Below are positions 1 to 60,767 of a DNA stretch of 64,000 nucleotides, piece after piece. The position numbers were made by a program, and so were the translations under genes. Position 1 is the first letter of the stretch; each line of letters opens with the position of its first letter. Origin of the DNA: Candidatus Micrarchaeota archaeon (lineage in GTDB: Archaea; Micrarchaeota; Micrarchaeia; Anstonellales; Bilamarchaeaceae); contig JBDRCX010000006.1 in the NCBI GenBank assembly GCA_043821365.1, positions 224,988 to 288,987 of the forward strand, written 5' to 3'. The notes under the pieces were generated by a model. It worked only from the letters and a program-made list of their open reading frames with translations. It searched no databases and was not told the DNA's origin.

Positions 1-1446
1 GATCGCGGCCAACTGTATGATGATTTTGCAAAAATTTGTATTGAACATTATGGCGCTGGTTGGGAAGTAATAGGTAAGAAATTTCATTCTGAAGTAGTGT
101 TACCAGGAGAAACATATGGGAAAGAAATGCATTTTGAGATATACTCAGACAAAGATGGCCAGGCAATTATAGATAATCTTACTATAGTAGTTGATATTCC
201 TAACGTGCCACCTGGAAGTTATGTTGGTGGATGTTATCTTTATGATAAATCAGCATTACAAACAGACAATATTGTTAGTGGTTCGGCATACGAAATCTTA
301 GAAGATGAGAGAAAAATTTATGGATCAAAAAATATATTATCTGCAGAACAAATCCCTCCTCTAGCAATAGTTTGTCTTCCTGCAGCCTTGATAATAGGTG
401 GAGTAGCGATTGTTGCATTCAACAAAGAAAAGAAAAGACCACATTATCCAGAAAGTATTTTGCCCCCAGAAAAAGAAGAACCGGAAATTATATCTATATT
501 GGTACGTAACTCTGCTCCAAAATCAGACATCATGGCTGCAACATTATTGGATTTGATAAATCGAGGAATTCTAGACATTATTGAGATGGGAAAAGAAAAA
601 ACAATATTAGTACTGAAAAAACGCCAAAAAAACCTCAAAGAAAAAGAATCCATACTCATAGAAATGATATTCAATGGTGGGAATACGCACGTAAATTTGG
701 ATCATCTTGCTAGTGATTTTGATGCAATTAAAACAAAGGAAGAGGCACACAGAAATACAATAAGCCGCGGTATTGAAAAATTTGACAATGCAGTGACAAA
801 AACAATAAAGGAAAATAAATTAGACCCAGTTGGTAGTTTATTACAATTGAAATGGTTGTTTTTGGTTGTAATTATTCTTTGCATTCCTTTTGGACTTTGT
901 ATTGGATCAAGCTGGGGAGCCATGTGGTTTGCCTGGGCAATTGTTACTGGAAATTACCTAGATATTATAGGCGTGTTTATGGCTACTGCTATATTCATTG
1001 CTTCTTGTGGTTATTTAGCTAGTAGAATATATGCACCAGAAGTACCAAAAGAAAGAGAAGATCAGTATGCTAAATGGGATGGTTTTGTTAGGGCAATAAA
1101 ATCAAGCAGGCTAAAAGAATACCCGCCAGAATCAGTAAAAATATGGGGCGGAATTTTGGTTTATGCAACTGCAATTGGTTTGGCAGACAGAGTAAAAATG
1201 CACTTATCTGAACTAAACAGATTAGTTGTAATTAAAATGGAAAGATTAGACAAAATACGCCTTGCTTCACAGCATTTTCACAGATCAGCTTTGGCACTTA
1301 ACAACTTGAGAAAATACGGAAATAGAAAGGGAAGAACATCCGGAGGTTCACATGGGGGATTTTCATCCAGATCATCAGGTGGTTGGAGTTCTAGAGGTGG
1401 GGGATTTAGTAGAAGTTCATCAGGTGGAGGGGGATTTCGCCGCTAG
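1..1446 (+). CDS. DUF2207-like membrane protein (5' end cut by window edge)
   Basis: Frame 1 is open from nt 1; the track ORF starts at an internal GTG at 97. Soluble N-terminal part and TM helices (LAIVCLPAALIIGGVAIVAF; WLFLVVIILCIPFGL). Gly/Ser-rich tail GGSHGGFSSRSSGGWSSRGGGFSRSSSGGGGFRR, as in DUF2207 proteins. Confidence 0.5.
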   Translation, partial: DRGQLYDDFAKICIEHYGAGWEVIGKKFHSEVVLPGETYGKEMHFEIYSDKDGQAIIDNLTIVVDIPNVPPGSYVGGCYLYDKSALQTDNIVSGSAYEILEDERKIYGSKNILSAEQIPPLAIVCLPAALIIGGVAIVAFNKEKKRPHYPESILPPEKEEPEIISILVRNSAPKSDIMAATLLDLINRGILDIIEMGKEKTILVLKKRQKNLKEKESILIEMIFNGGNTHVNLDHLASDFDAIKTKEEAHRNTISRGIEKFDNAVTKTIKENKLDPVGSLLQLKWLFLVVIILCIPFGLCIGSSWGAMWFAWAIVTGNYLDIIGVFMATAIFIASCGYLASRIYAPEVPKEREDQYAKWDGFVRAIKSSRLKEYPPESVKIWGGILVYATAIGLADRVKMHLSELNRLVVIKMERLDKIRLASQHFHRSALALNNLRKYGNRKGRTSGGSHGGFSSRSSGGWSSRGGGFSRSSSGGGGFRR

Positions 1447-2999
1447 TATTTCATGTTGGTTTTGATCTGGGGTTTTTTTGGTTTGAATCCCGGAGGTGGA
1501 ATCCCTTCAATTGGTTTTTTTGTAAATATTGCTTTTAGAAATAAGATAAATATTAGTAATACCCCCCCATAGTCAAAGATAGGAACAAGGAAACAACAAT
1601 AGAGTAGTACCCCACCAACCCCGAATAAAGCAGTAAGAATACTAACTGAATTATGCATTGCATGGAATAATGCTGCAATTGGCATACCGATAAGAATTCC
1701 TAGACCAGGTGCACGGAAACCACGAATTATGAAAAATGCTATAACAGCTCCAGTAATTGCAGTGTAAAAACCATGATTAGCAGAGAACACAATAGAACGA
1801 AGAATGAACAAAACTACCCAACCAATGATATCTGAACCCATTGGATTGTTGAGGAAATAGATCCAGTCTTCTATGAATGCAAAACCCATACCAATAACAA
1901 AACCGTATACTATTCCATCTTCTATTGAATCATATTCATGATGTTCGGATAATAAAGAAAGACCACTGCCCTTATAGCCCTCTTCTATTATTGGGGCGAC
2001 TAAAAAACTTGAAAGAAACCCTAACCCTAATATTCCGAATAGCACTCCTGCTAATGTGTTTATGCCTATCGCCATAAGTGCGGATAGCATGCCCCAAAGG
2101 AATAATGTAATTAGAATTCTGACTGGTTCTCGCTCTTTGAAATCAACATACCACCAGGCAGCACACCATAGAAATGGTATGAAAAAAGCAGCCATACCAG
2201 AAATAACAAAACCAGTTAATGCGGGAAGCGATTTCCATGCTTCTGCACTCATAACCATGTAGGATAGAATGAAAATTATCCCAATAAATTCAAATGCCCA
2301 GAAATATGGGGAGGTAATTAATGAGTAGAATTTTTGTAAAATGGTGCTTGTATTTGCAAACGGGTGAAGTAGAGAACGTAATGAATATTCACCAGGGAAT
2401 GAAAGTTTGTGTTTTGTCTCACTTGCAATTTTTAAAATTAGCAAGACCACTGGAACTATTATGGCAACATATACTCCAACTAATAGAAAAAAAGCAATTG
2501 TTGAGAACTCCCAGAAATTCACTTCATAATCAGACCAATCAAGAACAAACGATAGTGGATCTGTAGAGTATTCTTTTCCATTTTGTTCAAGGATAGCAAA
2601 AACTTCATAATTTCCTTTTCCTTCGTAATTGTATGGAATATAAGCGATACAATCAACTTTTGTTAGTCCAACATAATCACTTGTTTCATAAAACTCTTCA
2701 AGACAATCAATTTCATTTATCGATTTGCCATTGGCATAAATTTTAAGGTAAAGAAGACTTGTTGATGTTAATTTTGGGGTTTTTAAGGTAAGATTAATCT
2801 CATGAGGAGAATCACTAATAGATAATGGGATGTTGATTGGTTGAATAGAAAAATCAGGGTGGTGAATAGTCGATATGGTATCAATTGTTTCAGGCCCTAA
2901 AACCATACTCAAACCAAGTACAATAATACTAGCCATAATACCCAAAATTGCAAGGATTATAAGAAATCCAACAAAACCGCGATTAACAAGCCCTAGCAT
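1443..2999 (-). CDS. PrsW/CPBP-type intramembrane metalloprotease-like protein with N-terminal extracytoplasmic domain
   Basis: Polytopic membrane protein. Motifs IIEEGYKG (E-E-x-x-K), FSANHG (F-x3-H) and FHAMHNS (H-x3-N) fit the PrsW/CPBP signature. Start moved from 3167 to ATG 2999 (MLGLVNRGFVGFL...), because the upstream 56 codons run into the divergent promoter. Confidence 0.5.
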   Translation of the reverse strand: MLGLVNRGFVGFLIILAILGIMASIIVLGLSMVLGPETIDTISTIHHPDFSIQPINIPLSISDSPHEINLTLKTPKLTSTSLLYLKIYANGKSINEIDCLEEFYETSDYVGLTKVDCIAYIPYNYEGKGNYEVFAILEQNGKEYSTDPLSFVLDWSDYEVNFWEFSTIAFFLLVGVYVAIIVPVVLLILKIASETKHKLSFPGEYSLRSLLHPFANTSTILQKFYSLITSPYFWAFEFIGIIFILSYMVMSAEAWKSLPALTGFVISGMAAFFIPFLWCAAWWYVDFKEREPVRILITLFLWGMLSALMAIGINTLAGVLFGILGLGFLSSFLVAPIIEEGYKGSGLSLLSEHHEYDSIEDGIVYGFVIGMGFAFIEDWIYFLNNPMGSDIIGWVVLFILRSIVFSANHGFYTAITGAVIAFFIIRGFRAPGLGILIGMPIAALFHAMHNSVSILTALFGVGGVLLYCCFLVPIFDYGGVLLIFILFLKAIFTKKPIEGIPPPGFKPKKPQIKTNMKY

Positions 3000-3189
3000 T
3001 GAAAGGTTATTGAAGTATAGGAATAAAAACCTGAGATTCGCAATAATGTTGCTACAATGACGACACAGGTGATCACTGAGGCACAGCCTGTGATGATTGA
3101 CGTGCGGTCTGAGTAGTTTTTTGTTGACTGGAATCGCGTTGTGTAACCAAATAATGAGAAAATACACACAAGTAAAAAGAGTTTATTTT

Positions 3190-8531: not shown

Positions 8532-10583
8532 ATGGTAACTATGGGTGGAGCAAACAGACTGGGGCCTAGATTATACAGAGCAGCAGAAATAACAAACAGG
8601 CCAGAACCAATACAGAACACCTGGCTGAGGAGTTGTGCTAGGATTGTAGCTGTTGGAACAATATTGACCATGCCAATAGCAGCGATGGCAGAGTCTCCAC
8701 CAGACAATAGAACAATTGCAGCACAGATCACAACTGTAAGATCGCAATTACGCGAAGATGCTCCATTAATACTCCCAAGGAGAATAGTCGAGGCTCAGGC
8801 ACAAGAAAAAATACCTGAAATAAATACACACCTGGCAAGATTGGAGAGTATATCAGATGCAAAGAAACTTTTATACAACGAAGATATTGCAGATGCATTT
8901 ATCAAAAATCCAAAAAGAATCACAGATGCAATTGAAAGAATTGCTAAATTTATTAGTGTCTATCATGATGAAAGAGATGCTAAAAATGTTCAATTCGCTT
9001 TGGGGATATTAGGTGAAGAAACTGTTGGAAAATTATTTGTAAAATACCCAACAGCATTCACAAGCATTGCCATAAGTGCAAGAGCATATACTTGGATGGC
9101 TTATGATGCCATATCACAAGATGGGATTAGTGAGTTGTTCGAAGCACACCCATATGAATTTGTTGCAATGGCAAGAAGTGCAAGAATAGATGCATATGCT
9201 GAATTTGAACGATTAAAAAATCCAATTCTTGCTGAGATGTTTAAGAATTACCCCAAAGCATATGCTGGAGTTTACAGATATGATGAAGCAAAACGGGACG
9301 CTATTTTAAGCGAGATGGAAAAGGGAACAAAAACAATTGCACAGACAATTGTAGGATCAATATCCCTCTATGACCATGTTGCAATAGAACTTGGAAGAAC
9401 AATAGATGACCTAGAAGATGAAACAGAGAGAAAAGAACGGATAGAGAACCTCCAAATCGAAGAATTAGTTGGGTTATTATGTTCAAATCCAGAACTTTTT
9501 AATCAAGCAACTAATCGTTTATTATTCGAAAGAGCAAAGAGAGAGGCAGATAATGGGGGGGCAACCGTACTTAGGCACACATATGGACTGGGCCTGTTAC
9601 AAATGAGGAATATGGTTTTTAGAGCATTGAACAATGGGATGATAGATCAACTTATATCAGGCGAAAGAAAAGAACAAGAAATAGAATTCATAACAACAAT
9701 TATACTGGGGGAGCAAAATACCAAAACAGGCATTTATGCGGAAATTTTTGACCAGACATATTATTATTTGATGGCAAACGGAGCAAAGGAAGCGGCAGGG
9801 TATTTGCCCGAGCTGCAAATGAAGATAACTGATCAAAGAAGGAGGCTATTGTTAGAACATAGAACTACAGACCAAGAAAAAATAGTGCTTGCTTTAGGAT
9901 ACTTAGAAGGAGTTCTTAGTGGAACTGAACGTGGCGGATTCGTAGAAAAGAGTATTTTTGACATAAAACAATACAGGGATGCGCACGGTAGAGTTAATGT
10001 TGTGCAGATCTTTGATAGGGACGATACTAGAGGATATCATTGGGAAAGAAGTAAAGAAGTATTTGAAGCAAGATATGGAAAACCAAAAACATCCACAACA
10101 ACCACTGTGATTTATGAAACACGTGGAGTTAATGTTGTTCTATATATGGGAAGAACTGAAGAAGACAATGTTGAATTTGTACGCAAATGGATCACCACGC
10201 ATGAAAATGGAGTTGTAACTTTTAGAGGGCATAGTATCTCCTTGTATACAAATATGCCGGCCGATGTTTTTGGGAACAGAACAGGGAGATATTTATTTAT
10301 TCCTGGAAGTTGTGGAAGCGCTAGTAGTGTTCCGGAATATATTGGCCAGAACCCCAATACAGACATACGATCATTGAGCTATATTTCAACAGGATATGGA
10401 AATGTAACAAATGCCATGGTATTGATGTTTTTAGAGGAGCAACAACCAATTGAGATGGCAAGCGTGTTGCAAAAAAATGCACGAAGAATTGAAAGGGCAG
10501 GTGGGGATGCAGATTTAATAAGGATATGGCGGCCAGGTGAGGGGCTATTGAATTATATAGCACAAATGACAGTAGGTTCATAA
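8532..10583 (+). CDS. Uncharacterised large protein, paralog A (helical 34-residue repeats plus C-terminal His/Cys domain), signal-peptide-like N-terminus
   Basis: 683-aa ORF, alignable along its length with the next ORF. N-terminal IVAVGTILTMPIAAMA. Invariant VTFRGHS and IPGSCGS motifs. Confidence 0.6.
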   Translation: MVTMGGANRLGPRLYRAAEITNRPEPIQNTWLRSCARIVAVGTILTMPIAAMAESPPDNRTIAAQITTVRSQLREDAPLILPRRIVEAQAQEKIPEINTHLARLESISDAKKLLYNEDIADAFIKNPKRITDAIERIAKFISVYHDERDAKNVQFALGILGEETVGKLFVKYPTAFTSIAISARAYTWMAYDAISQDGISELFEAHPYEFVAMARSARIDAYAEFERLKNPILAEMFKNYPKAYAGVYRYDEAKRDAILSEMEKGTKTIAQTIVGSISLYDHVAIELGRTIDDLEDETERKERIENLQIEELVGLLCSNPELFNQATNRLLFERAKREADNGGATVLRHTYGLGLLQMRNMVFRALNNGMIDQLISGERKEQEIEFITTIILGEQNTKTGIYAEIFDQTYYYLMANGAKEAAGYLPELQMKITDQRRRLLLEHRTTDQEKIVLALGYLEGVLSGTERGGFVEKSIFDIKQYRDAHGRVNVVQIFDRDDTRGYHWERSKEVFEARYGKPKTSTTTTVIYETRGVNVVLYMGRTEEDNVEFVRKWITTHENGVVTFRGHSISLYTNMPADVFGNRTGRYLFIPGSCGSASSVPEYIGQNPNTDIRSLSYISTGYGNVTNAMVLMFLEEQQPIEMASVLQKNARRIERAGGDADLIRIWRPGEGLLNYIAQMTVGS

Positions 10584-10593
10584 ATTTTAATAG

Positions 10594-12687
10594 ATGAAAA
10601 AGAATGGTGTTAAGATGGCTGAAAGAGGAAGAGAAGTAGAACGAGATATTCATGGTCAGATCCCTACTCCAGTAATAACTTTAGCTTCAATAAGAAAACA
10701 GTTGTTGCCAGAAATACCAATGTCTGTTGCAGGTTTGATTTTGAAGTTAGAGGATCCGGCTTTGATTCAGAGAAAAATTGCAGAGGTAAACAAGGCTGCG
10801 CAAATATTTGTTACTGATGGACCGACAAAACCACCAGAATCTATTCCAATAGAAAGAATGATGGACATAACTGCAATTCGAGCAGCAACACGACAACGAG
10901 AACCAGAACATTTCAAAGCTCCAGAGGTTCTTCAACTATTGAGAAACGAGGATATTGCCGGGGCATTTATTGAAGATCCAATGAAGATAGCAGGCAGATT
11001 ACAACGGATATTCCATTTTGGGGTAGGGGAAAAAGGAAAGAAAGAGGACATCATGACATTAGTAGGGGTGTTAAGTGATTCAGTAGTTGCAAAATGTTTT
11101 GTAGAGCATCCATATGCATTTGTTTCAATAGCGTTAAACACAAGAAGAAACGCATTTATGGTGTTTGCTGAATTAGAAAACGAAAAATTAGCCGCATTAT
11201 TTGGGAAATACCACCAAAGTTTTGTGGAAATGGCACGATGTACCCAAAACGAAGACTCGTTTGCTTTACTTGCTGAGGATGAGACATTTAGAAGAATATT
11301 TGAAGCTAACCCCAGCCTATTTACTGGGGCACATAAATATGCAAGAGAGCAACCACAAGTATTTGACGAAATTATGGACTCCCTCAAGACAAGTAGAATG
11401 GGATTATCAGCTGCTATCATCAATACTATTGCAAGATATGACCATGTATCAATAGAAATAGGAAGAGCATTGGATGATCTCCATGACAACACAGAAGAAA
11501 GAAAACAATACCTCAAATCACTCACAAGAGACGAAGTTATTGGATTGTTAGCATCTAATCCAGAATTTTTCTACACTAGTTCGAACCATATGTTGTTTGA
11601 CAGATTAAAAGAAGAATTAGAAGGACATGGATTGAGCCATTTAAAAGAAACATATGGTTTAGGCGAAGAACAGCTGAGGAATTTTGTTTTTAGGGCAGTG
11701 GTATATGATAGAATTGGAGATTTTATAACTGCAGAAGGAGCAGATTTACAATTAGCAATGGCAACCATTTTAGGCACAGTGGAAAACAAAACCGGGATCT
11801 ATGCGGATACCTTTAATGAGGGGTATTTCTATCTGATGGCGAATGGAATCGAAACATTGAGTAAGTACGCACCAGAACTAACAGGAGAACTTAGTAGAAG
11901 AAGAAAAGAACTAGAAGCTTTGGGAACACGAACACTTGACCAAGAAAAGATCCTCGCAGCACTAACTTATGTTAATTTTATGTTCACTAGAGATCCACAA
12001 GGTGATGACGCACTGGAAAAGGTTGCTGATGGCGAAACATTCAACAGAACTGATTATAGGGGGCAAGATGGACGGGTAACAGTATTACAAATATTTGATA
12101 AGGAAGATACAGGAGCATACCATTGGGGGGCCACAAAAACATGGTTTCAGAAACAATTTGGTGCATCTCCAAGAAAAGGACCAAATGGAGAATTGATATT
12201 TGAGAATTCTAGTTCGCGAGTTATATTATATATGGGAAATGATGAGGATGCAAACATAGAATATACACGAGCATGGACGCAGAGATATGATAAAGGAATT
12301 GTAACTTTTAGAGGGCATAGTTTTAGTCTTAGTGGAAATATGCCAACAGATATATTTGGAAATAGAGAAGGAAAATACGTATTCATACCAGGAAGTTGTG
12401 GGAGTGCAGGTAGTGTTCCGGAATATATTTATCAGAACCCAAACACTGAAGTGAGATTCTTTAGTAATTCATCAACAGGAAGAGGGCAGGTGACAAATAC
12501 CTTAGTAAGTTTATTGTTAAGACAAACAAGACCAAGCACATTTACAAATGTTTTAGAAAGCGGAAAAACTCAGATAGCAAGGGCAGGTGGAGATATTGCA
12601 ACTATAAAAGCATTCACACAAGGGGAAGCGCTTCTTTATTATGTGATGGCTAGAACAACACCAACAGTAGAGATAACAGATGGCTAA
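10594..12687 (+). CDS. Uncharacterised large protein, paralog B
   Basis: 697-aa ORF starting 10 nt after paralog A. Same repeat, middle and C-terminal motifs (VTFRGHS, IPGSCGSAGSVPEYI). No signal peptide. Confidence 0.6.
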   Translation: MKKNGVKMAERGREVERDIHGQIPTPVITLASIRKQLLPEIPMSVAGLILKLEDPALIQRKIAEVNKAAQIFVTDGPTKPPESIPIERMMDITAIRAATRQREPEHFKAPEVLQLLRNEDIAGAFIEDPMKIAGRLQRIFHFGVGEKGKKEDIMTLVGVLSDSVVAKCFVEHPYAFVSIALNTRRNAFMVFAELENEKLAALFGKYHQSFVEMARCTQNEDSFALLAEDETFRRIFEANPSLFTGAHKYAREQPQVFDEIMDSLKTSRMGLSAAIINTIARYDHVSIEIGRALDDLHDNTEERKQYLKSLTRDEVIGLLASNPEFFYTSSNHMLFDRLKEELEGHGLSHLKETYGLGEEQLRNFVFRAVVYDRIGDFITAEGADLQLAMATILGTVENKTGIYADTFNEGYFYLMANGIETLSKYAPELTGELSRRRKELEALGTRTLDQEKILAALTYVNFMFTRDPQGDDALEKVADGETFNRTDYRGQDGRVTVLQIFDKEDTGAYHWGATKTWFQKQFGASPRKGPNGELIFENSSSRVILYMGNDEDANIEYTRAWTQRYDKGIVTFRGHSFSLSGNMPTDIFGNREGKYVFIPGSCGSAGSVPEYIYQNPNTEVRFFSNSSTGRGQVTNTLVSLLLRQTRPSTFTNVLESGKTQIARAGGDIATIKAFTQGEALLYYVMARTTPTVEITDG

Positions 12688-13083
12688 ATGAAGAAGATAT
12701 TAGTTGTTGCTGCAATAATAAAAAAAGACAACAAAATACTCATAGTGCAGAGAAAAACTAATTGTAAAAGGGAACCGAATAAATGGGAGTTCCCAGGTGG
12801 GAAAATAGAAATAGGTGAACGCCCAGAACAATGTTTGATTAGAGAGATAAAAGAAGAACTGGATTTGGATATTGTTGTTGGTGAGTTGTTTGGTGAAAGC
12901 TCAAAGAAGTATGAAGATGAAGAGATAGGGATATCATACTATTTTGCTAAATTAAAAAATAATAACAAACCAAAACTAATTGAGTGTCAGGATGTTCGGT
13001 GGGTTTTGTTAGAAGAACTGTGCACATATGATTTTGCCAGTGCAGATATGCAGATACCCAGGTTGTTAATATTAAATAAATAA
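12688..13083 (+). CDS. Nudix hydrolase (MutT-like)
   Basis: Nearly intact Nudix box GGKIEIGERPEQCLIREIKEELDL. ATG directly follows the TAA of paralog B. Confidence 0.8.
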   Translation: MKKILVVAAIIKKDNKILIVQRKTNCKREPNKWEFPGGKIEIGERPEQCLIREIKEELDLDIVVGELFGESSKKYEDEEIGISYYFAKLKNNNKPKLIECQDVRWVLLEELCTYDFASADMQIPRLLILNK

Positions 13084-13146: not shown

Positions 13147-13893
13147 ATGAGAGGTAGAACTACCAGTAAAGTATTGGCAACATATAGCCCAACACCAACA
13201 AACCAACATCTAGTTAGAAAATTAGAGTCCCTAGTCCCATTAAGATTTCAACCGCTAGAAGAAGATATAATACGAAGGGTGGCACAACTTAGCGAAGTAC
13301 AAGGAAGAACAATTCATTTGTGGGGGGATGGAGAAAAACACCATGAATCTTATTTTGTTACGCGAGGGAAAGTTAGATTTAAGATAAACATAGACCGACA
13401 TTCCGATAGGATGGACGCGAGATATATTGATTTTACAAATCATATAACAGCATCACAAAAAGACGGTATTGTGGTTGCAACACAGATAAATAAAACAGAT
13501 AAACTAGACGACGCAAGAAAAAGAGCAGTGGAATTTGATGGTGGGGAGATTGGGGTAAGTGTGGATTTAGACGGTGTTGATGAAATGCCAGTTTTAGAAA
13601 GATGGTTGTTCCCATATAATATGGGTTTGTATGGATGGGAAATTAGAAACCTATTAGTAGAACTTCACCAAAAAACTAGAACATTAGATGTTGGTGGATT
13701 GATAGAAACAATTCCAGATTTTAGTTTGGTTTCAGTTGCTAGATATGATGTTAGTTATGAGGATATGTACAGGTTTTTGGAAATAATAAAACAACGTGCA
13801 ATTACAACAACAGGACAGGAGATAGTAGACAAAGTAATGTCCAAAACAACAGAAAATATTGCTTCATTTATACGTGCTTTTTTAACTAATTAG
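13147..13893 (+). CDS. Short arginase/agmatinase (ureohydrolase)-fold-like protein, divergent
   Basis: WGDGEKHH (cf. GGDHS), NIDRHSD (cf. DAHxD) and SVDLDGVDEMP (cf. SxDxDxxDP) occur in the canonical order, but motifs 2 and 3 are only ~53 aa apart. Upstream TATA (ctttataaatag) and SD (gtggag). Confidence 0.35.
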   Translation: MRGRTTSKVLATYSPTPTNQHLVRKLESLVPLRFQPLEEDIIRRVAQLSEVQGRTIHLWGDGEKHHESYFVTRGKVRFKINIDRHSDRMDARYIDFTNHITASQKDGIVVATQINKTDKLDDARKRAVEFDGGEIGVSVDLDGVDEMPVLERWLFPYNMGLYGWEIRNLLVELHQKTRTLDVGGLIETIPDFSLVSVARYDVSYEDMYRFLEIIKQRAITTTGQEIVDKVMSKTTENIASFIRAFLTN

Positions 13894-39436: not shown

Positions 39437-42400
39437 ATGGCACGAACATTGGTTCTATCGATATTATTTATTCTCTTATCTATTTCTTTTGCTTCGTTTT
39501 CTCGTCCTTGGTTAGATGAAAATTGGGTTGATTCCAATCCAAATATATGGACTTATGGGATGGAATACTGGTGGAATCTTCCAGAATTTGACAAAACAAT
39601 AAATTCTATTGATTTTGATCAACTCCCCAACCTACAAAATTATCCAAAAATAAAAAATTATATTGAACAAACTAAAAATTACGGAGAGACAAGCCAGAAA
39701 AACATGAATGATTGTATCTTTGAAGTAATAGTTGCAGTTGGAAGCTTTTCTCCATCAGCAACTTTTTTTTCTGCGTTTGCAAATTCTTCTGATTGCCGTA
39801 CTTACAAAAAAAACTGGGTAAAATCAGTTGATTATGCCCTTCTTGCATTAGAAGAAAGCGATTCAGCAGCCAAGAAGGCCATATCCTCTGCAAGGGCGTC
39901 ATACGAAAATATCAAATTTCTTGGTTTGTGTGATAAAGATTATTCTGATTTTGGAAGTGATAATTGCAATAACATCTCCATCATATTTACAATTATTGAC
40001 AATAATCTTTCTGAGGGGACATATGGTCAGTATCCCATGTTTTTACAATATCATGATCAAGTACAAGAAGAACTACTAGAACCAACTCCAGATCTGTCTC
40101 TTTCCGATTCTATGCTTTATCTAATTTTTGGAGATAATGGTACACTCGATGTTTTTGAGAAACTAAAAAATTCCTCTGATAAACTTACTGCTGATGCAGA
40201 AAAAGAATTTCAATTCAGACTACAGAAGATTTCAATTCAAAAGTCTCAAACAGAACAAAGAATATCCGAACTAAAAAAGGCGGATTTTGGGCTTATAACT
40301 GATGGCGTGAAATCAAGTTCAACTACTTCGGTAGGTTCTATCTCAGAAATATTTTATGGTCTGGAAAAGGAATCTCAAGACCTAGGTCGAATATATTCAG
40401 AAACTATAGTTCAGCATGGTCATTCAACAGAGCAAAGCTATCTTTCAAATTCATTGTCGATGACAACCTCCATATCTACAAAGTATTCAGATCTCTTTTC
40501 TAAGTTAGAATTATTGAAAGATGGTGCAGTGGAGGTGCTTTTACAAAAACAACAAGAAGCAGAGGAAGAAATTTCAAATACTGAAGACTTCTTCATGAAA
40601 ATCGTGCCCAGTCCAGAAGGGTTGCAAATGTTAGAAACAGCAAAGGAAAAACTTGAAACTGGCAAATCTGCATCGACAGCAGGCACCGCATTTGTATTAT
40701 ATTCCAAATCAGCTGCTTTCGCTCGGTCTGCTAGAAATACTGGGAAATTCGAAGATCAAGTGCAAACTAATATTTTGATTACCAAATTGGAACACCTAAT
40801 TCTTATGGCAGAAAAAGATGGGATCAATGTAGTTGATGAAAAAGAATCACTTACCCTATTAAAGTCGTTGGAGTTTCCACAAAAAGATCAGATCTTACTT
40901 GCTTCAATCGATAACATTATCCTGAAAGCAAAGAGTAAATACGAAGCAAATCTGCTTATGATGAGGACAGAGATAAAAGAGAAAATTTCCCTAATTGGTC
41001 CGGTTGTTGGTTTAATTTCTAAAGATATGGAAGATTATGAATTTGGTTTAATCAAAGATGATGAAATTATTTTTCCAGATGCTATTGGTTCATTAAAAAA
41101 ACTTAAATTAAATTATGAGAGTGTAGAGTTGGCTCTTGATGAATATACTAGTGTGCTAGTTTCAAATTCAATGACCACAAAAACATCTCCTATTTTCGGA
41201 CAGGTTTGGTTTGATAAACCAACAGATGTTTTCCTCGATATTGTACTAGTGAATGGGCCGTACTCCGCATCTAATGTCAAGGTGCAAGTAGATATTGGTT
41301 CGAAAATACCTTTTTTCTATTCAGATATTGTAACTGGCAAAGACGAAGTTACGAGTTTGTTTGATACTGGAAACCAATTATTCTTTGTTTTGAAAAATGT
41401 TGAACCATTTGATATCAAAAGAATAACTCTGCAAAAATCATTGATTATATCACATATCCTCTCCAATGAACATACTGCCGAAGGGGTCGGAAATGGTCTT
41501 GTAAGAATTTACGATAAAATAAATTTTGAACTTGATTATCAAGTTTCGAAGATTGAAGTTCCTTATGTTATGGAAAATTGTATGATTGATGACCTACCAA
41601 ATCCCACTTTACTTTCTACGGGAAAACATGAACTTAGGTGTGAGAAAACAATCTATGGGTATGACCAACAAATAACAAACATTAAAACCAGCATGTCTGG
41701 TACAAAAACAAAAATTGAATATGAAATAACTATATCGTCAGATTTTGATCTTTCAACATTACTTGTACAAATTGATAATACTACAGGTTCTCAAATTTCA
41801 TCTTTACAAGCAGTTGTTTCTGGTGCAACCCTCAAAGAGAAAAAAAATTCTGGTTCACAAGTATCTGTTGTTATTTCAGATGTTAAAAAGGACCAGACAA
41901 CAACCATGTACCTTAGTTATCTTGTTGATGATCCAGAAAACTATATCATGGAAAAAATAAACCAGATCCCCAACAATAATCAATCTGAAGTAGAAGACCT
42001 TTTGGAAAGTGCAAAAGAACAATCTGTACTTGGTAATTATGAAAATGCTCTAAAACTTGTTGAGGAAGCAAAAACGACCTCTAATGAATATACAAAACAA
42101 CAAACAAAATTGGAAACAAAATATGGTGATCTTAGCAAAAAAGCAACAAATGAAATAAATCTGATTGAAAAAACACTGCCTGATTTTGATGTTAATACCA
42201 GTGTATACGAAAAACTCAAGACACGAATGTTGGAAATGGAAAAAGTTTTGGAAGATAATTCCACTATGGAGGATAAACTAACATTATTAGAAAGTTTTGA
42301 TTTCAATTGGCTTTCAAAAGAGGTAACTTCTTTCAAGAAAGAAGCTTATAAAGAGTTCAATAACCTCAAAGAACGTTTTTATCGTACTGGCAACTTTTCC

Positions 42401-43114
42401 ACCCCACCAGAATTTCTTGCTCTTGAAAATGCAATCATTCAACTTGAAACAACCGGACAAGTTGAATATCTAAGTGACGTTTCAAATGCTTTAGAAAATG
42501 CGAAGTTTCTGGTTGAGAATGAAGAACTGGCTTACAAAAAGTCTCAGGATTCTATAGTTGATTCTTTCAGTCTTATCAAATCCAACATTCTCCATCTCCT
42601 AGATTCATATAATACTCAAGCATCAGCTGCAAAAGGCACAGAATATAGTAATTTATTTACTGAAAGCGGAACCAAATTGGTAAAACTTTTGGATGATGCA
42701 GAGAAACTCATTGGAAAAGATGTGGGTCAATTCACATTAAAATTAGACGAAATAACTAAATCCGAAGACAAAATGCAGTTTATTTTGGAGTCATTAAAAG
42801 AGGAAACAGAGACTAAGATTCTAACTATAAGCTCATTACTAGCTAGCAGACAATTCGATCAGTCAAAAAAACCGGATTTAGAAACAAAATTCCAATCGAT
42901 GCAAGATCTGGCAAGTAAGGGGGATTACGTAAACGCTCTTCGTGCTGGCAATATCATTTTGGGGGAATTCGAAGTTAAGGATCCAGAACCAAACAATATT
43001 CTTCTATTTAGTGTTACTGCATTAGCAATTCTTAGTGGTGCTGGTTTTTATCTACTAAACCAGAACAAACCCAAGGAGTTGAAGAAACTTCCAACTGCAG
43101 ACGAAGCAATTTAA
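39437..43114 (+). CDS. Large surface protein, S-layer/cell-envelope candidate (signal peptide, coiled-coil-rich, C-terminal TM anchor)
   Basis: 1225 aa. Signal MARTLVLSILFILLSISFASF. C-terminal ILLFSVTALAILSGAGFYLL followed by a basic tail. Many N-x-S/T sequons. Lies next to the glycan cluster. Confidence 0.55.
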   Translation: MARTLVLSILFILLSISFASFSRPWLDENWVDSNPNIWTYGMEYWWNLPEFDKTINSIDFDQLPNLQNYPKIKNYIEQTKNYGETSQKNMNDCIFEVIVAVGSFSPSATFFSAFANSSDCRTYKKNWVKSVDYALLALEESDSAAKKAISSARASYENIKFLGLCDKDYSDFGSDNCNNISIIFTIIDNNLSEGTYGQYPMFLQYHDQVQEELLEPTPDLSLSDSMLYLIFGDNGTLDVFEKLKNSSDKLTADAEKEFQFRLQKISIQKSQTEQRISELKKADFGLITDGVKSSSTTSVGSISEIFYGLEKESQDLGRIYSETIVQHGHSTEQSYLSNSLSMTTSISTKYSDLFSKLELLKDGAVEVLLQKQQEAEEEISNTEDFFMKIVPSPEGLQMLETAKEKLETGKSASTAGTAFVLYSKSAAFARSARNTGKFEDQVQTNILITKLEHLILMAEKDGINVVDEKESLTLLKSLEFPQKDQILLASIDNIILKAKSKYEANLLMMRTEIKEKISLIGPVVGLISKDMEDYEFGLIKDDEIIFPDAIGSLKKLKLNYESVELALDEYTSVLVSNSMTTKTSPIFGQVWFDKPTDVFLDIVLVNGPYSASNVKVQVDIGSKIPFFYSDIVTGKDEVTSLFDTGNQLFFVLKNVEPFDIKRITLQKSLIISHILSNEHTAEGVGNGLVRIYDKINFELDYQVSKIEVPYVMENCMIDDLPNPTLLSTGKHELRCEKTIYGYDQQITNIKTSMSGTKTKIEYEITISSDFDLSTLLVQIDNTTGSQISSLQAVVSGATLKEKKNSGSQVSVVISDVKKDQTTTMYLSYLVDDPENYIMEKINQIPNNNQSEVEDLLESAKEQSVLGNYENALKLVEEAKTTSNEYTKQQTKLETKYGDLSKKATNEINLIEKTLPDFDVNTSVYEKLKTRMLEMEKVLEDNSTMEDKLTLLESFDFNWLSKEVTSFKKEAYKEFNNLKERFYRTGNFSTPPEFLALENAIIQLETTGQVEYLSDVSNALENAKFLVENEELAYKKSQDSIVDSFSLIKSNILHLLDSYNTQASAAKGTEYSNLFTESGTKLVKLLDDAEKLIGKDVGQFTLKLDEITKSEDKMQFILESLKEETETKILTISSLLASRQFDQSKKPDLETKFQSMQDLASKGDYVNALRAGNIILGEFEVKDPEPNNILLFSVTALAILSGAGFYLLNQNKPKELKKLPTADEAI

Positions 43115-56919: not shown

Positions 56920-57633
56920 ATGTACGGAGTTTCCCCCCAAGCATATGATCGAGCAATTACGGTGTTTAGTCCGGATGGAAGATTATTCCAGGTTGAATAC
57001 GCAAAAGAAGCAGTGAAAAGAGGAGCAACTGCAATAGGTATAACATCAAAGGATGGAGTTGCATTAGTTGCATTCAAATCAATTCATTCTGCGCTAGTTG
57101 TGCCAGAATCACTGAAGAAAGTTTTTGAAATCGATAGTCATATTGTTGTAACAGCGTCAGGGTTAATTGCAGATGCTAGAAGACTTGTTGAAGTTGCACG
57201 TGTTGATTCACAAAGACATAGGATAACTTACAACGAAGCACCAAGTGTTGATTCTATCGCAAGAAGTGCCTGTGATCTTATGCAGGTTTACACCCAATAT
57301 GGTGGGATTAGACCATTTGGAGTTTCTCTTTTGATTGCAGGTGTTGATGATCAAGGACCAAAACTCTTTGAAGCTGAACCAAGTGGTGCTATGACTGCAT
57401 ATACGGCAGACTCCATAGGTGCAAACAAAAAAGAAGTAGATGAGTACCTTGAGTCTAAATATAGTGCAAAAATGACTTTGGACGACTCAATAAAACTATG
57501 TGTTGATGCTTTACGAAAAACACAAGAAGCAAAACTTCTCCAGGAAAACGTTGAAATTTCATATGTGACAACAAAGACGAAGAAATGTGTTTCATTACCA
57601 GATAAAGACGTTGGCAAATATTTGAAACCTTAA
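56920..57633 (+). CDS. psmA: Proteasome alpha subunit
   Basis: YDRAITVFSPDGRLFQVEYA signature. SD gaggtga upstream, and TATA-like aatataaata about 50 nt upstream. Confidence 0.9.
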   Translation: MYGVSPQAYDRAITVFSPDGRLFQVEYAKEAVKRGATAIGITSKDGVALVAFKSIHSALVVPESLKKVFEIDSHIVVTASGLIADARRLVEVARVDSQRHRITYNEAPSVDSIARSACDLMQVYTQYGGIRPFGVSLLIAGVDDQGPKLFEAEPSGAMTAYTADSIGANKKEVDEYLESKYSAKMTLDDSIKLCVDALRKTQEAKLLQENVEISYVTTKTKKCVSLPDKDVGKYLKP

Positions 57634-58988: not shown

Positions 58989-60767
58989 ATGAGATCTTTA
59001 CTGGTTTTGGCGTTAATCGTCTTTTTATTCGGATTTGGATGTTTAATTCCTGGTATGTGCGGGGGAGCTGTTTGTGGAAGTGATTGGCAAACTTATGGTG
59101 ATAAATGCCAAGCAGAAGCAGCAGGTGTTACTGTTCTAAAAGATGGCCAGTGCGGTCAAAAATGTACTGACAGTGATGGTGGAGATAGCCCAATTGTGTT
59201 TGGTACAGCCCAGTACAAAGGACTTTCCTATAATGATTATTGCCAGGGAAGTAAAATAGTGGAATATTCATGTAGAAACAATGAGTTACAAAGCCAAACA
59301 TCTGATTGCCCGAGTGGAACTTGTGAAAATGGAGCGTGTTCTACTGCATCATGTACTGACAGTGATGGTGGTAAAGATCAATATACCAAAGGAACAGCAT
59401 CAGAAGGTACAAATTATACAGATTCTTGCGTTGCATTGAACAAAGTACAAGAATATTATTGTTCTACTAATGGTGTACTTTCTGAAATCATCACATGTTC
59501 ATCAGGCTTTGAATGCTCTGATGGTGCATGTCTTTCATTAACTTGTTCTGATACTGAAACCGGACATGGTGAATATGTTGCAGGAACCGTAACAAAAGGA
59601 AGCATGGATTATACAGACTATTGTATTGATACCACACAAATCAATGAATTCTATTGTAACAACGGAGTGGTTGTTTCTGCCACTCTAACCTGTCCGTCAG
59701 GATATAACTGCGATTCAGGGACATGTGTTAGCGTAGGCTGTTCTGATGATGATGGTGGCTCAAATAAGTATTCAAAAGGAACAACAACAAAAGGAGACAC
59801 AACTTATACTGATTATTGTACGAGTTCAAGTGAAGTAAAAGAGTACTATTGTTCTTGGGGTGACATATATTCAAGTACATTAAGTTGTTCTTCAGGATAT
59901 TCATGTTCTGATGGTGCATGTATTTCAGGTGATTCATGTGATGATTCTGATGGTGGTAAAGACAGATATGAAGAAGGTACCACCACGAAAGGAGAAGATG
60001 AATACACAGACACATGTAAAGATAGCGACACAGTAAAAGAATATTTCTGTGATAATGACGATCTGATTGACTATACAAATCTAGACTGTCCATCTGGTTA
60101 TGAGTGTGACGATGGTGAATGTGTTGTGACTGGTGGAACTCCAACGAGCTGTTCTGATACTGATGGCCAAGATTATGAAACTGTTGGATCTACAAGTGAT
60201 TCAACTGGTGCATCTGGCACAGATAATTGTATCGACGATACTCATGTCAGAGAGTATTTCTGTGATAATAATTTACTAGATTCAGAATCTTATGATTGTA
60301 GTGCAGATTCTGCAGTTTGTGATGGTGGCAGGTGCGTTCCAATATCATGTACTGACACTGATGGTGGAGAAACATACTTTACATTCGGTACAGTGACATT
60401 TAGTTATGATGGTGTAGACACAGATTATGATGACGTTTGTACTGGGCCATTGACATTACGTGAATACTACTGTGATGAGTATGATGTAATGAACTCAACC
60501 CAATCATGTTTATTTGGGTGTTCTGGAGGCGAATGCCAATCAATCTCTATTCCAACTTGTTCTGATACTGACGGTGGGGATATGCCATATACATTTGGTA
60601 CAACAACCTACAGTTATGGTGGCAGCGATACAGATTATGACGACGTTTGTATTAGTCCGGCTACAGTACGTGAATATTACTGTAATGGTTTTATGGTAAT
60701 GAACACCACCCACACATGTATAAATCTGTGTACTGGAGGAAAATGTAATCCTCTCGTAATACCATAA
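58989..60767 (+). CDS. Secreted Cys-rich repeat protein: Kazal-like N-terminal motif plus 8 tandem six-Cys CxDxDGG modules
   Basis: Signal MRSLLVLALIVFLFGFGC. VCGSDWQTYGDKCQAEAAGVTVLKDGQC. Then 8 units of about 62-70 aa: C[TSD]D[ST][DE][GT]G...Y..GT...G..Y.D.C......v.EY.C.......s..C..G..C..G.C. Confidence 0.7.
   Translation: MRSLLVLALIVFLFGFGCLIPGMCGGAVCGSDWQTYGDKCQAEAAGVTVLKDGQCGQKCTDSDGGDSPIVFGTAQYKGLSYNDYCQGSKIVEYSCRNNELQSQTSDCPSGTCENGACSTASCTDSDGGKDQYTKGTASEGTNYTDSCVALNKVQEYYCSTNGVLSEIITCSSGFECSDGACLSLTCSDTETGHGEYVAGTVTKGSMDYTDYCIDTTQINEFYCNNGVVVSATLTCPSGYNCDSGTCVSVGCSDDDGGSNKYSKGTTTKGDTTYTDYCTSSSEVKEYYCSWGDIYSSTLSCSSGYSCSDGACISGDSCDDSDGGKDRYEEGTTTKGEDEYTDTCKDSDTVKEYFCDNDDLIDYTNLDCPSGYECDDGECVVTGGTPTSCSDTDGQDYETVGSTSDSTGASGTDNCIDDTHVREYFCDNNLLDSESYDCSADSAVCDGGRCVPISCTDTDGGETYFTFGTVTFSYDGVDTDYDDVCTGPLTLREYYCDEYDVMNSTQSCLFGCSGGECQSISIPTCSDTDGGDMPYTFGTTTYSYGGSDTDYDDVCISPATVREYYCNGFMVMNTTHTCINLCTGGKCNPLVIP
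59163..60764 (+). repeat. Tandem coding repeat array (8 units, about 190-210 nt each)
   Basis: Units start at successive tgt(a/t)c(t/c)ga(c/t)(a/g)... codons encoding C[TSD]D[STD][DE]. The last two units are the most similar at the DNA level. Confidence 0.75.

Follow-up and report, generated by a model that had tools for sequence, protein, structure and literature searches.

We analysed a stretch of 64,000 nucleotides (hereafter the window) from a Candidatus Micrarchaeota archaeon, contig JBDRCX010000006.1, and found in it two adjacent genes on the forward strand, here called A (8532..10583, 683 residues) and B (10594..12687, 697 residues from its first ATG), which encode members of an undescribed protein family. 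The family is restricted to the Micrarchaeota and Iainarchaeum, that is to DPANN archaea, in almost all named genomes. Its members combine helical repeats of about 34 residues with a C-terminal alpha/beta domain in which one cysteine is strictly invariant and is preceded, 27 residues earlier in A and B, by a histidine. Our leading guess, to which we give slightly less than an even chance, is that this domain is a cysteine-dependent hydrolase, of the peptidase, amidase or isopeptidase kind. A first-pass annotation of the locus, made from its letters alone, had drawn attention to the pair and to the possible resemblance of its His and Cys motifs to those of clan CD (caspase-like) cysteine peptidases. 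Its observation is confirmed by our results, and its interpretation is partly supported.

An orphan family of DPANN archaea

Neither A nor B has a match in Pfam, NCBIfam, PADLOC or PHROGs, and when 68 family members were compared with Pfam at E<=10 no recurrent family was found for the core and no recurrent clan CD match. Searches of the PDB with single full-length sequences, with a profile of the 68 sequences and with a profile of the C-terminal domain returned only designed helical proteins, which match the repeats, and an insignificant EF-Tu match. The profile of the C-terminal domain alignment, run against a set of 5.8 billion proteins, retrieved family members only, none of them with Pfam domains or informative names. 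Literature searches on DUF4347, on Micrarchaeota with caspase and on DPANN protein families yielded nothing about the A/B family. With no confident full-length match to any characterised family, the initial description of the family as unrecognised holds.

A word-indexed search of the 5.8 billion proteins found 8 relatives, one of them labelled as a 'Candidatus Micrarchaeota archaeon' hypothetical protein, and HMMER, run exhaustively over 1.84 billion cluster representatives, found 122, of which 75 score below 1e-30. When one genome per species was scanned with a pattern, 20 loci came up, with labels naming Micrarchaeota (16), Bilamarchaeum (1), Iainarchaeum (2), 'uncultured archaeon' (1) and Pseudomonadota (1); 19 of the 20 fall under the archaeal labels. 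The genomes of Micrarchaeota and related groups are tiny and the organisms rely on host archaea, and most of their lineage-specific proteins are without an assigned function.

Two members stand apart in their genomic setting. In a metagenome-assembled genome labelled 'Pseudomonadota bacterium' (locus L023, JAZDOG010000040.1, 6004..6435), an open reading frame (ORF) of 143 residues corresponds only to the last two thirds of the catalytic-like domain; it is 48% identical to B, has the RGHS and GSCGS motifs intact and lies amid bacterial two-component-system genes. Transfer of a fragment, chimeric assembly and mis-binning of the contig are all possible origins. The contig of the very divergent member P0103 carries rsmD-coaD-like genes in an order that is typical of bacteria.

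Domain architecture

Alignments show four parts in the family: a conserved leader of about 50 residues, the repeats of about 34 residues, a conserved helical middle domain and the C-terminal domain of about 200 residues. A full-length AlphaFold2 (AF2) model of B, with a predicted local distance difference test score (pLDDT) of 80, is all-helical to about residue 480 and alpha/beta from there on. In B the leader comprises residues 24-73 (10663..10812, on the forward strand like all features of A and B given here) and has the aligned pattern PV.TL.S.RKQL...P..V...I......KI.EVNKAA; the same leader is found in the DUF4347-type sister proteins described below. In A-type copies a signal-peptide-like segment takes the place of the leader or comes before it.

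The repeats of about 34 residues reported for A and B were recovered with a hidden Markov model (HMM) built solely from the repeats of other family members, for which the best of 400 shuffled controls reached 0.51. In A they occupy residues ~113-245 (8868..9266, E=1.3e-12), with three significant copies at residues 159-190, 193-220 and 225-242 and one partial copy. The repeats of B (10933..11349, E=1.2e-13), all-helical in the AF2 model, include two significant copies at 165-187 and 191-217 together with weaker flanking ones. Repeat number is variable across the family, from 1 to 14 significant copies per member.

The middle domain is all-helical and conserved in both proteins. In A (9315..9962) the alignment shows AIELGR..DDL, SNPELF..N..LF.R, RNMVFRA and YYYLMANG, and in B (11389..12045) the domain is defined by the alignment and the AF2 model; at the family level the motifs are AIELGRPLDDLH, SNPEFFYTSSNHLLFDRL, RNFxFRA and YFYLLANG. 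Matches of A to other members in phmmer mostly span from residue ~265-285 to the C-terminal end, and therefore we consider the middle and C-terminal domains to be the constant core of the family.

The A/B pair and its localisation

A and B are paralogous over their full length, as first proposed, with 40% identity across 582 aligned residues (E=5e-145). Two long runs of identical DNA (one of them at 10213-10235 and 12299-12321) each occur twice only, at exactly the positions on the His and Cys motifs where the first-pass annotation had placed them, and none is expected in shuffles. The TAA of A is followed by 10 nt and the first ATG of B. The true start of B is probably the ATG at 10615, giving a protein of 690 residues, because the orthologs align from the second Met and the gene caller also chose 10615. 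The ORF lengths of A, B and the gene that follows them (683, 697 and 131 residues) stand as originally listed, but the spacer between A and B is probably 31 nt and not 10.

Near its N-terminus A has a hydrophobic segment resembling a signal peptide or signal anchor (8637..8690, residues 36-53, ARIVAVGTILTMPIAAMA, followed by ESPP; Kyte-Doolittle maximum 1.75). Positive charges before this segment and acidic residues after it fit an N-in, C-out orientation. A hydrophobicity scan and the corresponding segments of orthologs are the basis of this call, and by the same scan B has no such segment. The proposed division into one exported and one cytoplasmic copy is borne out to the extent that a signal-peptide-like N-terminus is present in A only and that the difference recurs in orthologous pairs.

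The conserved unit is the pair of an A-type and a B-type copy, which we found in five loci besides the window. The upstream copy has an analogous hydrophobic N-terminus in L006, L026 (P0009), L027/L028 (P0011) and L029 (P0010), and in L001 its 5' end is cut by the contig end. The downstream copy has the canonical RGHS and lacks a hydrophobic N-terminus in L001, L006, L026 and L027/L028; in L029 it is cut by the contig end, leaving only a B-type N-terminus visible. In a rough neighbour-joining tree the upstream copies, including window A, group together and most downstream copies form a separate cluster, so that the duplication is old and the pair has been maintained. Only 5 of the 61 full-length members passed our threshold for a hydrophobic N-terminus, with four more, including A, just below it, and therefore most members are probably cytoplasmic.

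A different and unusual N-terminus, M-[FIL]-[IV]-F-Q followed by polar sequence, is shared by proteins of the family and of the sister family (P0006, P0085, P0094, P0107, P0109 and P0118, also P0068 with MIFQ) and is not present in A or B. It may serve as a signal for processing or sorting.

Conservation of the C-terminal domain

In A the C-terminal alpha/beta domain covers 9963..10580 (domain HMM E=2e-84), with the codon of His567 at 10230-10232 and that of Cys594 at 10311-10313. In B it covers 12046..12684 and contains an RGH motif (Arg573 and His575, His codon 12316-12318), a GSCGS motif (Cys602, codon 12397-12399) and an STGRGQVTN loop. The spacing of 27 residues that had been noticed between the His and the Cys is correct for both proteins.

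We counted conservation in 86 representative C-terminal domains, using B numbering. Cys602 is present in 86/86, and Arg573 of the RGH motif, Pro584 and Gly629 in 85/86 each. Gly600, two residues before the Cys, is found in 83/86 and Ser604 in 81/86; the residue preceding Cys602 is Ser in 74/86 and the one following it is Gly in 78/86. His575 is present in 79/86, with Asp in six domains and Glu in one. Among the serines near the His, Ser576 of the GHS motif is kept in 73/86 (otherwise Ala, Ile, Thr, Glu or Met) and Ser578 in 69/86. The His and the Cys had both been called invariant, and this is true of A and B; across the family it is strictly true of the Cys but not of the His.

The seven domains with Asp or Glu at position 575 differ from the 79 canonical ones at two further positions. 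A His is found at 578 in four of the seven compared with 1/79 (Fisher p=8e-5), and Pro599, which adjoins the Cys, is altered in six of the seven compared with 11/79 (p=1.6e-4), by tests that in both cases ignore phylogeny. The variant motifs are RGDSIHL or RADxxHL, and the variant sequences are not each other's nearest relatives. This pattern suggests that the His motif is coupled to the Cys motif and that a His is retained near the site. The Asp575/His578 variant is seen in P0009, P0011, P0054, P0068 and the upstream copies of L001 and L006, mostly exported A-type copies, and it is present in 4/5 of the upstream copies other than window A. Window A, which has the canonical RGHS, and P0010 retain His575. 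The variant copies look as though the putative catalytic His had moved by three residues.

Predicted structure and comparison with known enzymes

An AF2 model of the C-terminal domain of B, made with 68 sequences, has a pLDDT of 94.7 and a predicted template modelling score (pTM) of 0.90. Its elements follow in the order b1, a1, b2-b3 hairpin, a2, b4, a3, b5, a4, b6 and a5 onward. The RGH motif comes directly after b4 (strand 567-573) and GSCGS directly after b5 (594-599), with one short helix between them, and together these form a beta-alpha-beta unit. All of the conserved polar residues (among them D502/D505 after b1, G548 after b3, RGH, GSCGS and N625..STGxGxVTN after b6) are placed by the model at C-terminal strand ends or helix N-termini, on the usual active-site edge of such folds. 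We infer from the model that His575 and Cys602 are neighbours in space. The predicted fold is a Rossmann-like three-layer sandwich to which no known superfamily is assigned yet.

In a Foldseek comparison of the C-terminal domain with the PDB, the best E-values (3.7e-4 to 1e-2) belong to the GTPases Arf, Arl and EF-Tu, with template modelling scores (TM) of 0.33-0.43. The highest TM belong to caspase-fold proteins, namely Csx29 TPR-CHAT (0.49), caspase-4 (0.48), caspase-6 (0.45) and caspase-1 (0.41), and against the viral models of BFVD a C14 caspase-domain protein ranks second (TM 0.44). The full-length model returned only noise.

The likeness to clan CD (Csx29 TPR-CHAT, 7zoq; separase; caspases, C14) is one of plan. 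Helical repeats precede an alpha/beta domain, and in this domain the His precedes the Cys, each right after a hydrophobic strand (IVTF-RG-H575 and VFIP-GS-C602). The first-pass annotation had proposed clan CD from this order, and the order and the predicted strand placement both stand; membership does not follow, with no profile match and a Foldseek TM of at most 0.49. Although this is the best TM range of all PDB matches (0.41-0.49), it stays below 0.5, the E-value is 4.6e-3 at best and small GTPases do as well or better by E-value, so that the fold similarity is weak and clan CD membership is therefore unproven. The clan CD fold has a six-stranded sheet of order 2-1-3-4-5-6, and the beta2-beta3 hairpin of the model is not known from caspases. 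The spacing between His and Cys in caspases, legumain and C80 peptidases is ~33-48 residues, against 27 here.

Small GTPases (Arf/Arl, EF-Tu) give the best Foldseek E-value, but the A/B domain has no Walker A, DxxG or NKxD motif, and its conserved residues are Cys, His and Arg. After strand 1 it reads FDKEDT...HW, with no GxxxxGK[ST]. We rejected a P-loop GTPase on these motifs and on the weak fold similarity. Flavodoxin-like enzymes with a Cys elbow, such as class I glutamine amidotransferase, DJ-1/PfpI and pyroglutamyl peptidase, likewise have the Cys in a small-x-Cys-x-small turn between strand and helix. In those enzymes the His and the acid follow the Cys, whereas the A/B family has no conserved His, Asp or Glu downstream of it, and the top lists of our profile and fold searches contain no match to this group. 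Protein tyrosine phosphatases (PTP), low-molecular-weight PTP and rhodaneses were rejected by motif, as the loop reads C-G-S-A-G-S-V/T, with no Arg at +6 to complete C-X5-R(S/T).

Sister proteins with other heads on the same scaffold

Seven proteins (P0083, P0086, P0097, P0109, P0117, P0118 and P0119) match the family through their N-terminal part only. Their leader and repeats are homologous to those of the family, as shown by BLASTP of P0117 against P0004 (E=1e-29, residue 12 against residue 7), and the domain at their C-terminal end is a different one, with IGGHG...LG...SCSTG motifs. Each of the seven has a match to Pfam DUF4347 (PF14252; best 6e-7, above the gathering score), a model that has no match in A, B or the 68 family members. 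A profile of the sister proteins gave weak matches to two structures, 9qpe_G of DUF4347 (E=0.14) and 8tl0_A of a CHAT domain (E=0.2), in which the His and the Cys are aligned. The presence of such a CHAT-like GHG...SC domain on the scaffold is also a hint at DUF4347 being a cysteine protease domain of a clan-CD-like kind. P0117 is the only sister protein placed on an archaeal contig, one that carries ribosomal protein S8e. P0102, a further protein with this scaffold, has an NAGPA phosphodiester-glycosidase domain at its C-terminal end.

The DUF4347 sister proteins resemble the A/B family in having strand-GH ... strand-SC motifs in the C-terminal domain. They differ from it in lacking the helical middle domain and in a His-Cys spacing of ~44 residues. 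Since the same leader and repeats are found with differing heads, the scaffold seems to be a lineage-specific carrier of enzyme-like heads, one of them caspase/CHAT-like. The shared scaffold, with two His/Cys heads that have no detectable homology to each other, supports the view that the A/B domain works like a caspase/CHAT domain and not that it is a member of that group.

Proposed function and alternatives

A and B go back to an old duplication and have been kept side by side. We suggest that in both of them the Rossmann-like alpha/beta domain of ~200 residues is the likely catalytic part and the repeat array may be a target-binding module. Cys602 would lie in a G-S-C-G-S strand-turn-helix 'nucleophile elbow', with His575 at the end of the preceding parallel strand. 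Its thiol would be the nucleophile, activated by His575 or, in the variant copies, by the relocated His and the Asp, and the His might be backed by one of the two aspartates where strand 1 ends, Asp502 or Asp505. The enzyme would then cleave, by hydrolysis, an amide, peptide or isopeptide linkage of a partner that the repeats hold in place. The nature of the scaffold as a carrier suggests action on a macromolecular partner, and the precedent of repeat-plus-caspase-like proteases, our analogy for the mechanism, is the reason why our leading guess is a peptidase, amidase or isopeptidase. The place of action would be extracellular for A-type copies and intracellular for B-type copies.

A more far-reaching combination of these ideas is in our judgement doubtful. 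It would make the family a new clan of cysteine hydrolases, in which a Rossmann/G-domain-like scaffold converged on a caspase-like His-Cys pair, the His migrated by one helical turn in some lineages, which gave the variant with Asp plus His, and the head became interchangeable with DUF4347/CHAT-like protease domains on the lineage-specific leader-plus-repeat scaffold of DPANN archaea, with exported A-type copies acting on surface or host proteins and cytoplasmic B-type copies on intracellular targets.

If the domain is a cysteine hydrolase, a protease or amidase family has been wholly overlooked by current annotation pipelines. The family is widespread in its group, with ~100 sequence clusters and an active-site-like signature, and is kept as an exported/cytoplasmic pair in some lineages, and it would be a testable candidate for the biochemistry of the surface or of host interaction in DPANN archaea. 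A function for DUF4347 is suggested as well, by the exchange of the A/B domain for a DUF4347/CHAT-like one on a common scaffold.

Several observations weigh against a cysteine hydrolase of the caspase type. The A/B family has no profile match to any clan CD family (C11, C13, C14, C25, C50, C80 or CHAT) or other peptidase family in Pfam or in PDB profile searches, and hhalign gives a probability of 0.2-0.4% between the A/B C-terminal domain and the DUF4347-type domain, that is, no detectable homology. The motifs read RGH-S and GS-C-GS, and those of clan CD usually H-G and (A/Q)-C. The putative catalytic His575 is absent from 7/86 members. The Foldseek E-values are weak and rank the small GTPases Arf, Arl and EF-Tu above caspases; the order of elements, with its beta2-beta3 hairpin after helix 1, is presumably the same as in small GTPases and fits a G-domain equally. 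The loop after the Cys has a pLDDT <50 in the full-length model, which was made from a shallow alignment. Finally, a clustering of the neighbourhoods of 23 loci and the window shows no recurrent neighbour and gives no hint of a substrate.

The main alternative is that the C-terminal domain is a thiol enzyme binding phosphate, nucleotides or another anion, of the phosphatase, sulfurtransferase or nucleotidyl-transfer type, and not a peptidase. We consider this unlikely, as we do its specific form, in which Cys602 would sit in a Gly/Ser-rich anion-binding loop while STGRGQVTN and Arg573 hold the phosphate. The domain does have two motifs of strand, Gly-rich loop and helix (CGSAGS and STGRGQ), the near-invariance of Arg573 and the tolerance of His-to-Asp swaps would suit such a site, and P-loop GTPases have the top Foldseek E-values. 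The sole PDB profile match, insignificant at E=0.77, aligns STGRGQVTN with the P-loop of EF-Tu, and in two related genomes the pair has a Nudix gene beside it or close by. These points are offset by the missing Walker A after strand 1, by the missing Arg at Cys+6, by the low TM to GTPases, by the lack of any rhodanese or PTP structure among the top 50 Foldseek matches and by the lack of the Nudix gene in nearly all other loci.

Less probable again is a non-catalytic domain in which the Cys, with His or Asp, would bind a metal or serve a structural or redox purpose, the protein being a repeat-based scaffold or adaptor. An exchange of His for Asp or Glu is typical of metal ligands, the helical repeat scaffold makes up most of the protein and no enzymatic family is matched. 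On the other hand, only one Cys is invariant and a second or third invariant ligand is lacking, and the small-x-Cys-x-small elbow with its conserved Gly at -2 and +1 is typical of nucleophiles. The conserved polar residues cluster on the canonical active-site edge of the sheet, and the scaffold is fused elsewhere to enzyme-like domains (DUF4347, NAGPA). If this explanation were true, the finding would shrink to another orphan repeat protein.

The idea of a functional operon in which A, B and the Nudix gene that follows them would share a nucleotide-linked substrate is largely refuted and in our view very improbable. The Nudix gene (12688..13083, forward strand, 131 residues) was correctly identified at the outset: its product matches PF00293 at 4.9e-21 and looks MutT-like, and its ATG directly follows the TAA of B. 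In L026, which has the closest A-type ortholog, an orthologous Nudix gene (58% identity) lies 1.9 kb upstream of the pair. However, that gene is on the opposite strand and on the other side of the pair, with a transglutaminase-core gene and a small ORF between them. No Nudix gene was found by tblastn and a Nudix-box search in 22 distinct loci (L001-L023, with L003 and L004 on one contig), nor by tblastn in L024, L025, L027/L028 and L029. It was not found in 25/26 distinct other loci, and same-strand adjacency occurs in 0/26. The absence of any recurrent neighbour and the generic, housekeeping type of this MutT-like Nudix also speak against the operon. The adjacency in the window is local synteny shuffled to the same strand and not a conserved operon, and the Nudix gene lies outside the conserved module.

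A serine hydrolase, with G-H-S-x-S as the nucleophile elbow, had been offered as another option and is the least probable of all, for even though small-x-Ser-x-small fits A, B and most homologs, the incomplete conservation of Ser576 and Ser578 makes a serine nucleophile unlikely, no conserved acid or His follows downstream to form an alpha/beta-hydrolase triad, and in the model the Ser opens a helix right after the His and has no strand-helix elbow of its own.

Gene neighbourhood

We considered a link with the proteasome, whose alpha-subunit gene lies 0.7-1.4 kb upstream of the pair in L006, L027/L028 and L029, at 5 kb in L002 and at 44 kb in the window (56920..57633). This proximity looks like synteny within one subclade and not like functional linkage.

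Directly after the Nudix gene in the window is an ORF of 248 residues (13147..13893, forward strand) that matches nothing in Pfam, NCBIfam, PADLOC or PHROGs; a search of the 23 other loci L001-L023 showed no homolog of it in the vicinity of family genes. In L026 the Nudix gene is flanked by the transglutaminase-core protein (1576..2973, reverse strand, 465 residues) and by a gene with a weak Peptidase_M23 match (519..1124, reverse strand), neither of which has a counterpart beside the pair in the window. In one locus only, L002, a gene for 130 residues matching PF18894 (PhageMetallopep; 11786..12178) begins ten bases past the stop of P0007.

Other features of the window

The window carries ordinary housekeeping genes of a small archaeon, and the database record of B lies on a contig of 798 kb. 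A scan for bacterial promoters and terminators gave no more than chance would, as it should in an archaeon; the 64 kb contain no tRNA gene by ARAGORN, and no Rfam family reached its gathering score within them. Two large ORFs on the forward strand, of 1225 residues (39437..43114) and 592 residues (58989..60767), have no Pfam match at E<=1e-5. On the reverse strand a protein of 574 residues (1443..3167) has a C-terminal domain of the PrsW family of intramembrane metalloproteases (4.6e-34), preceded by an unassigned N-terminal part of ~340 residues.

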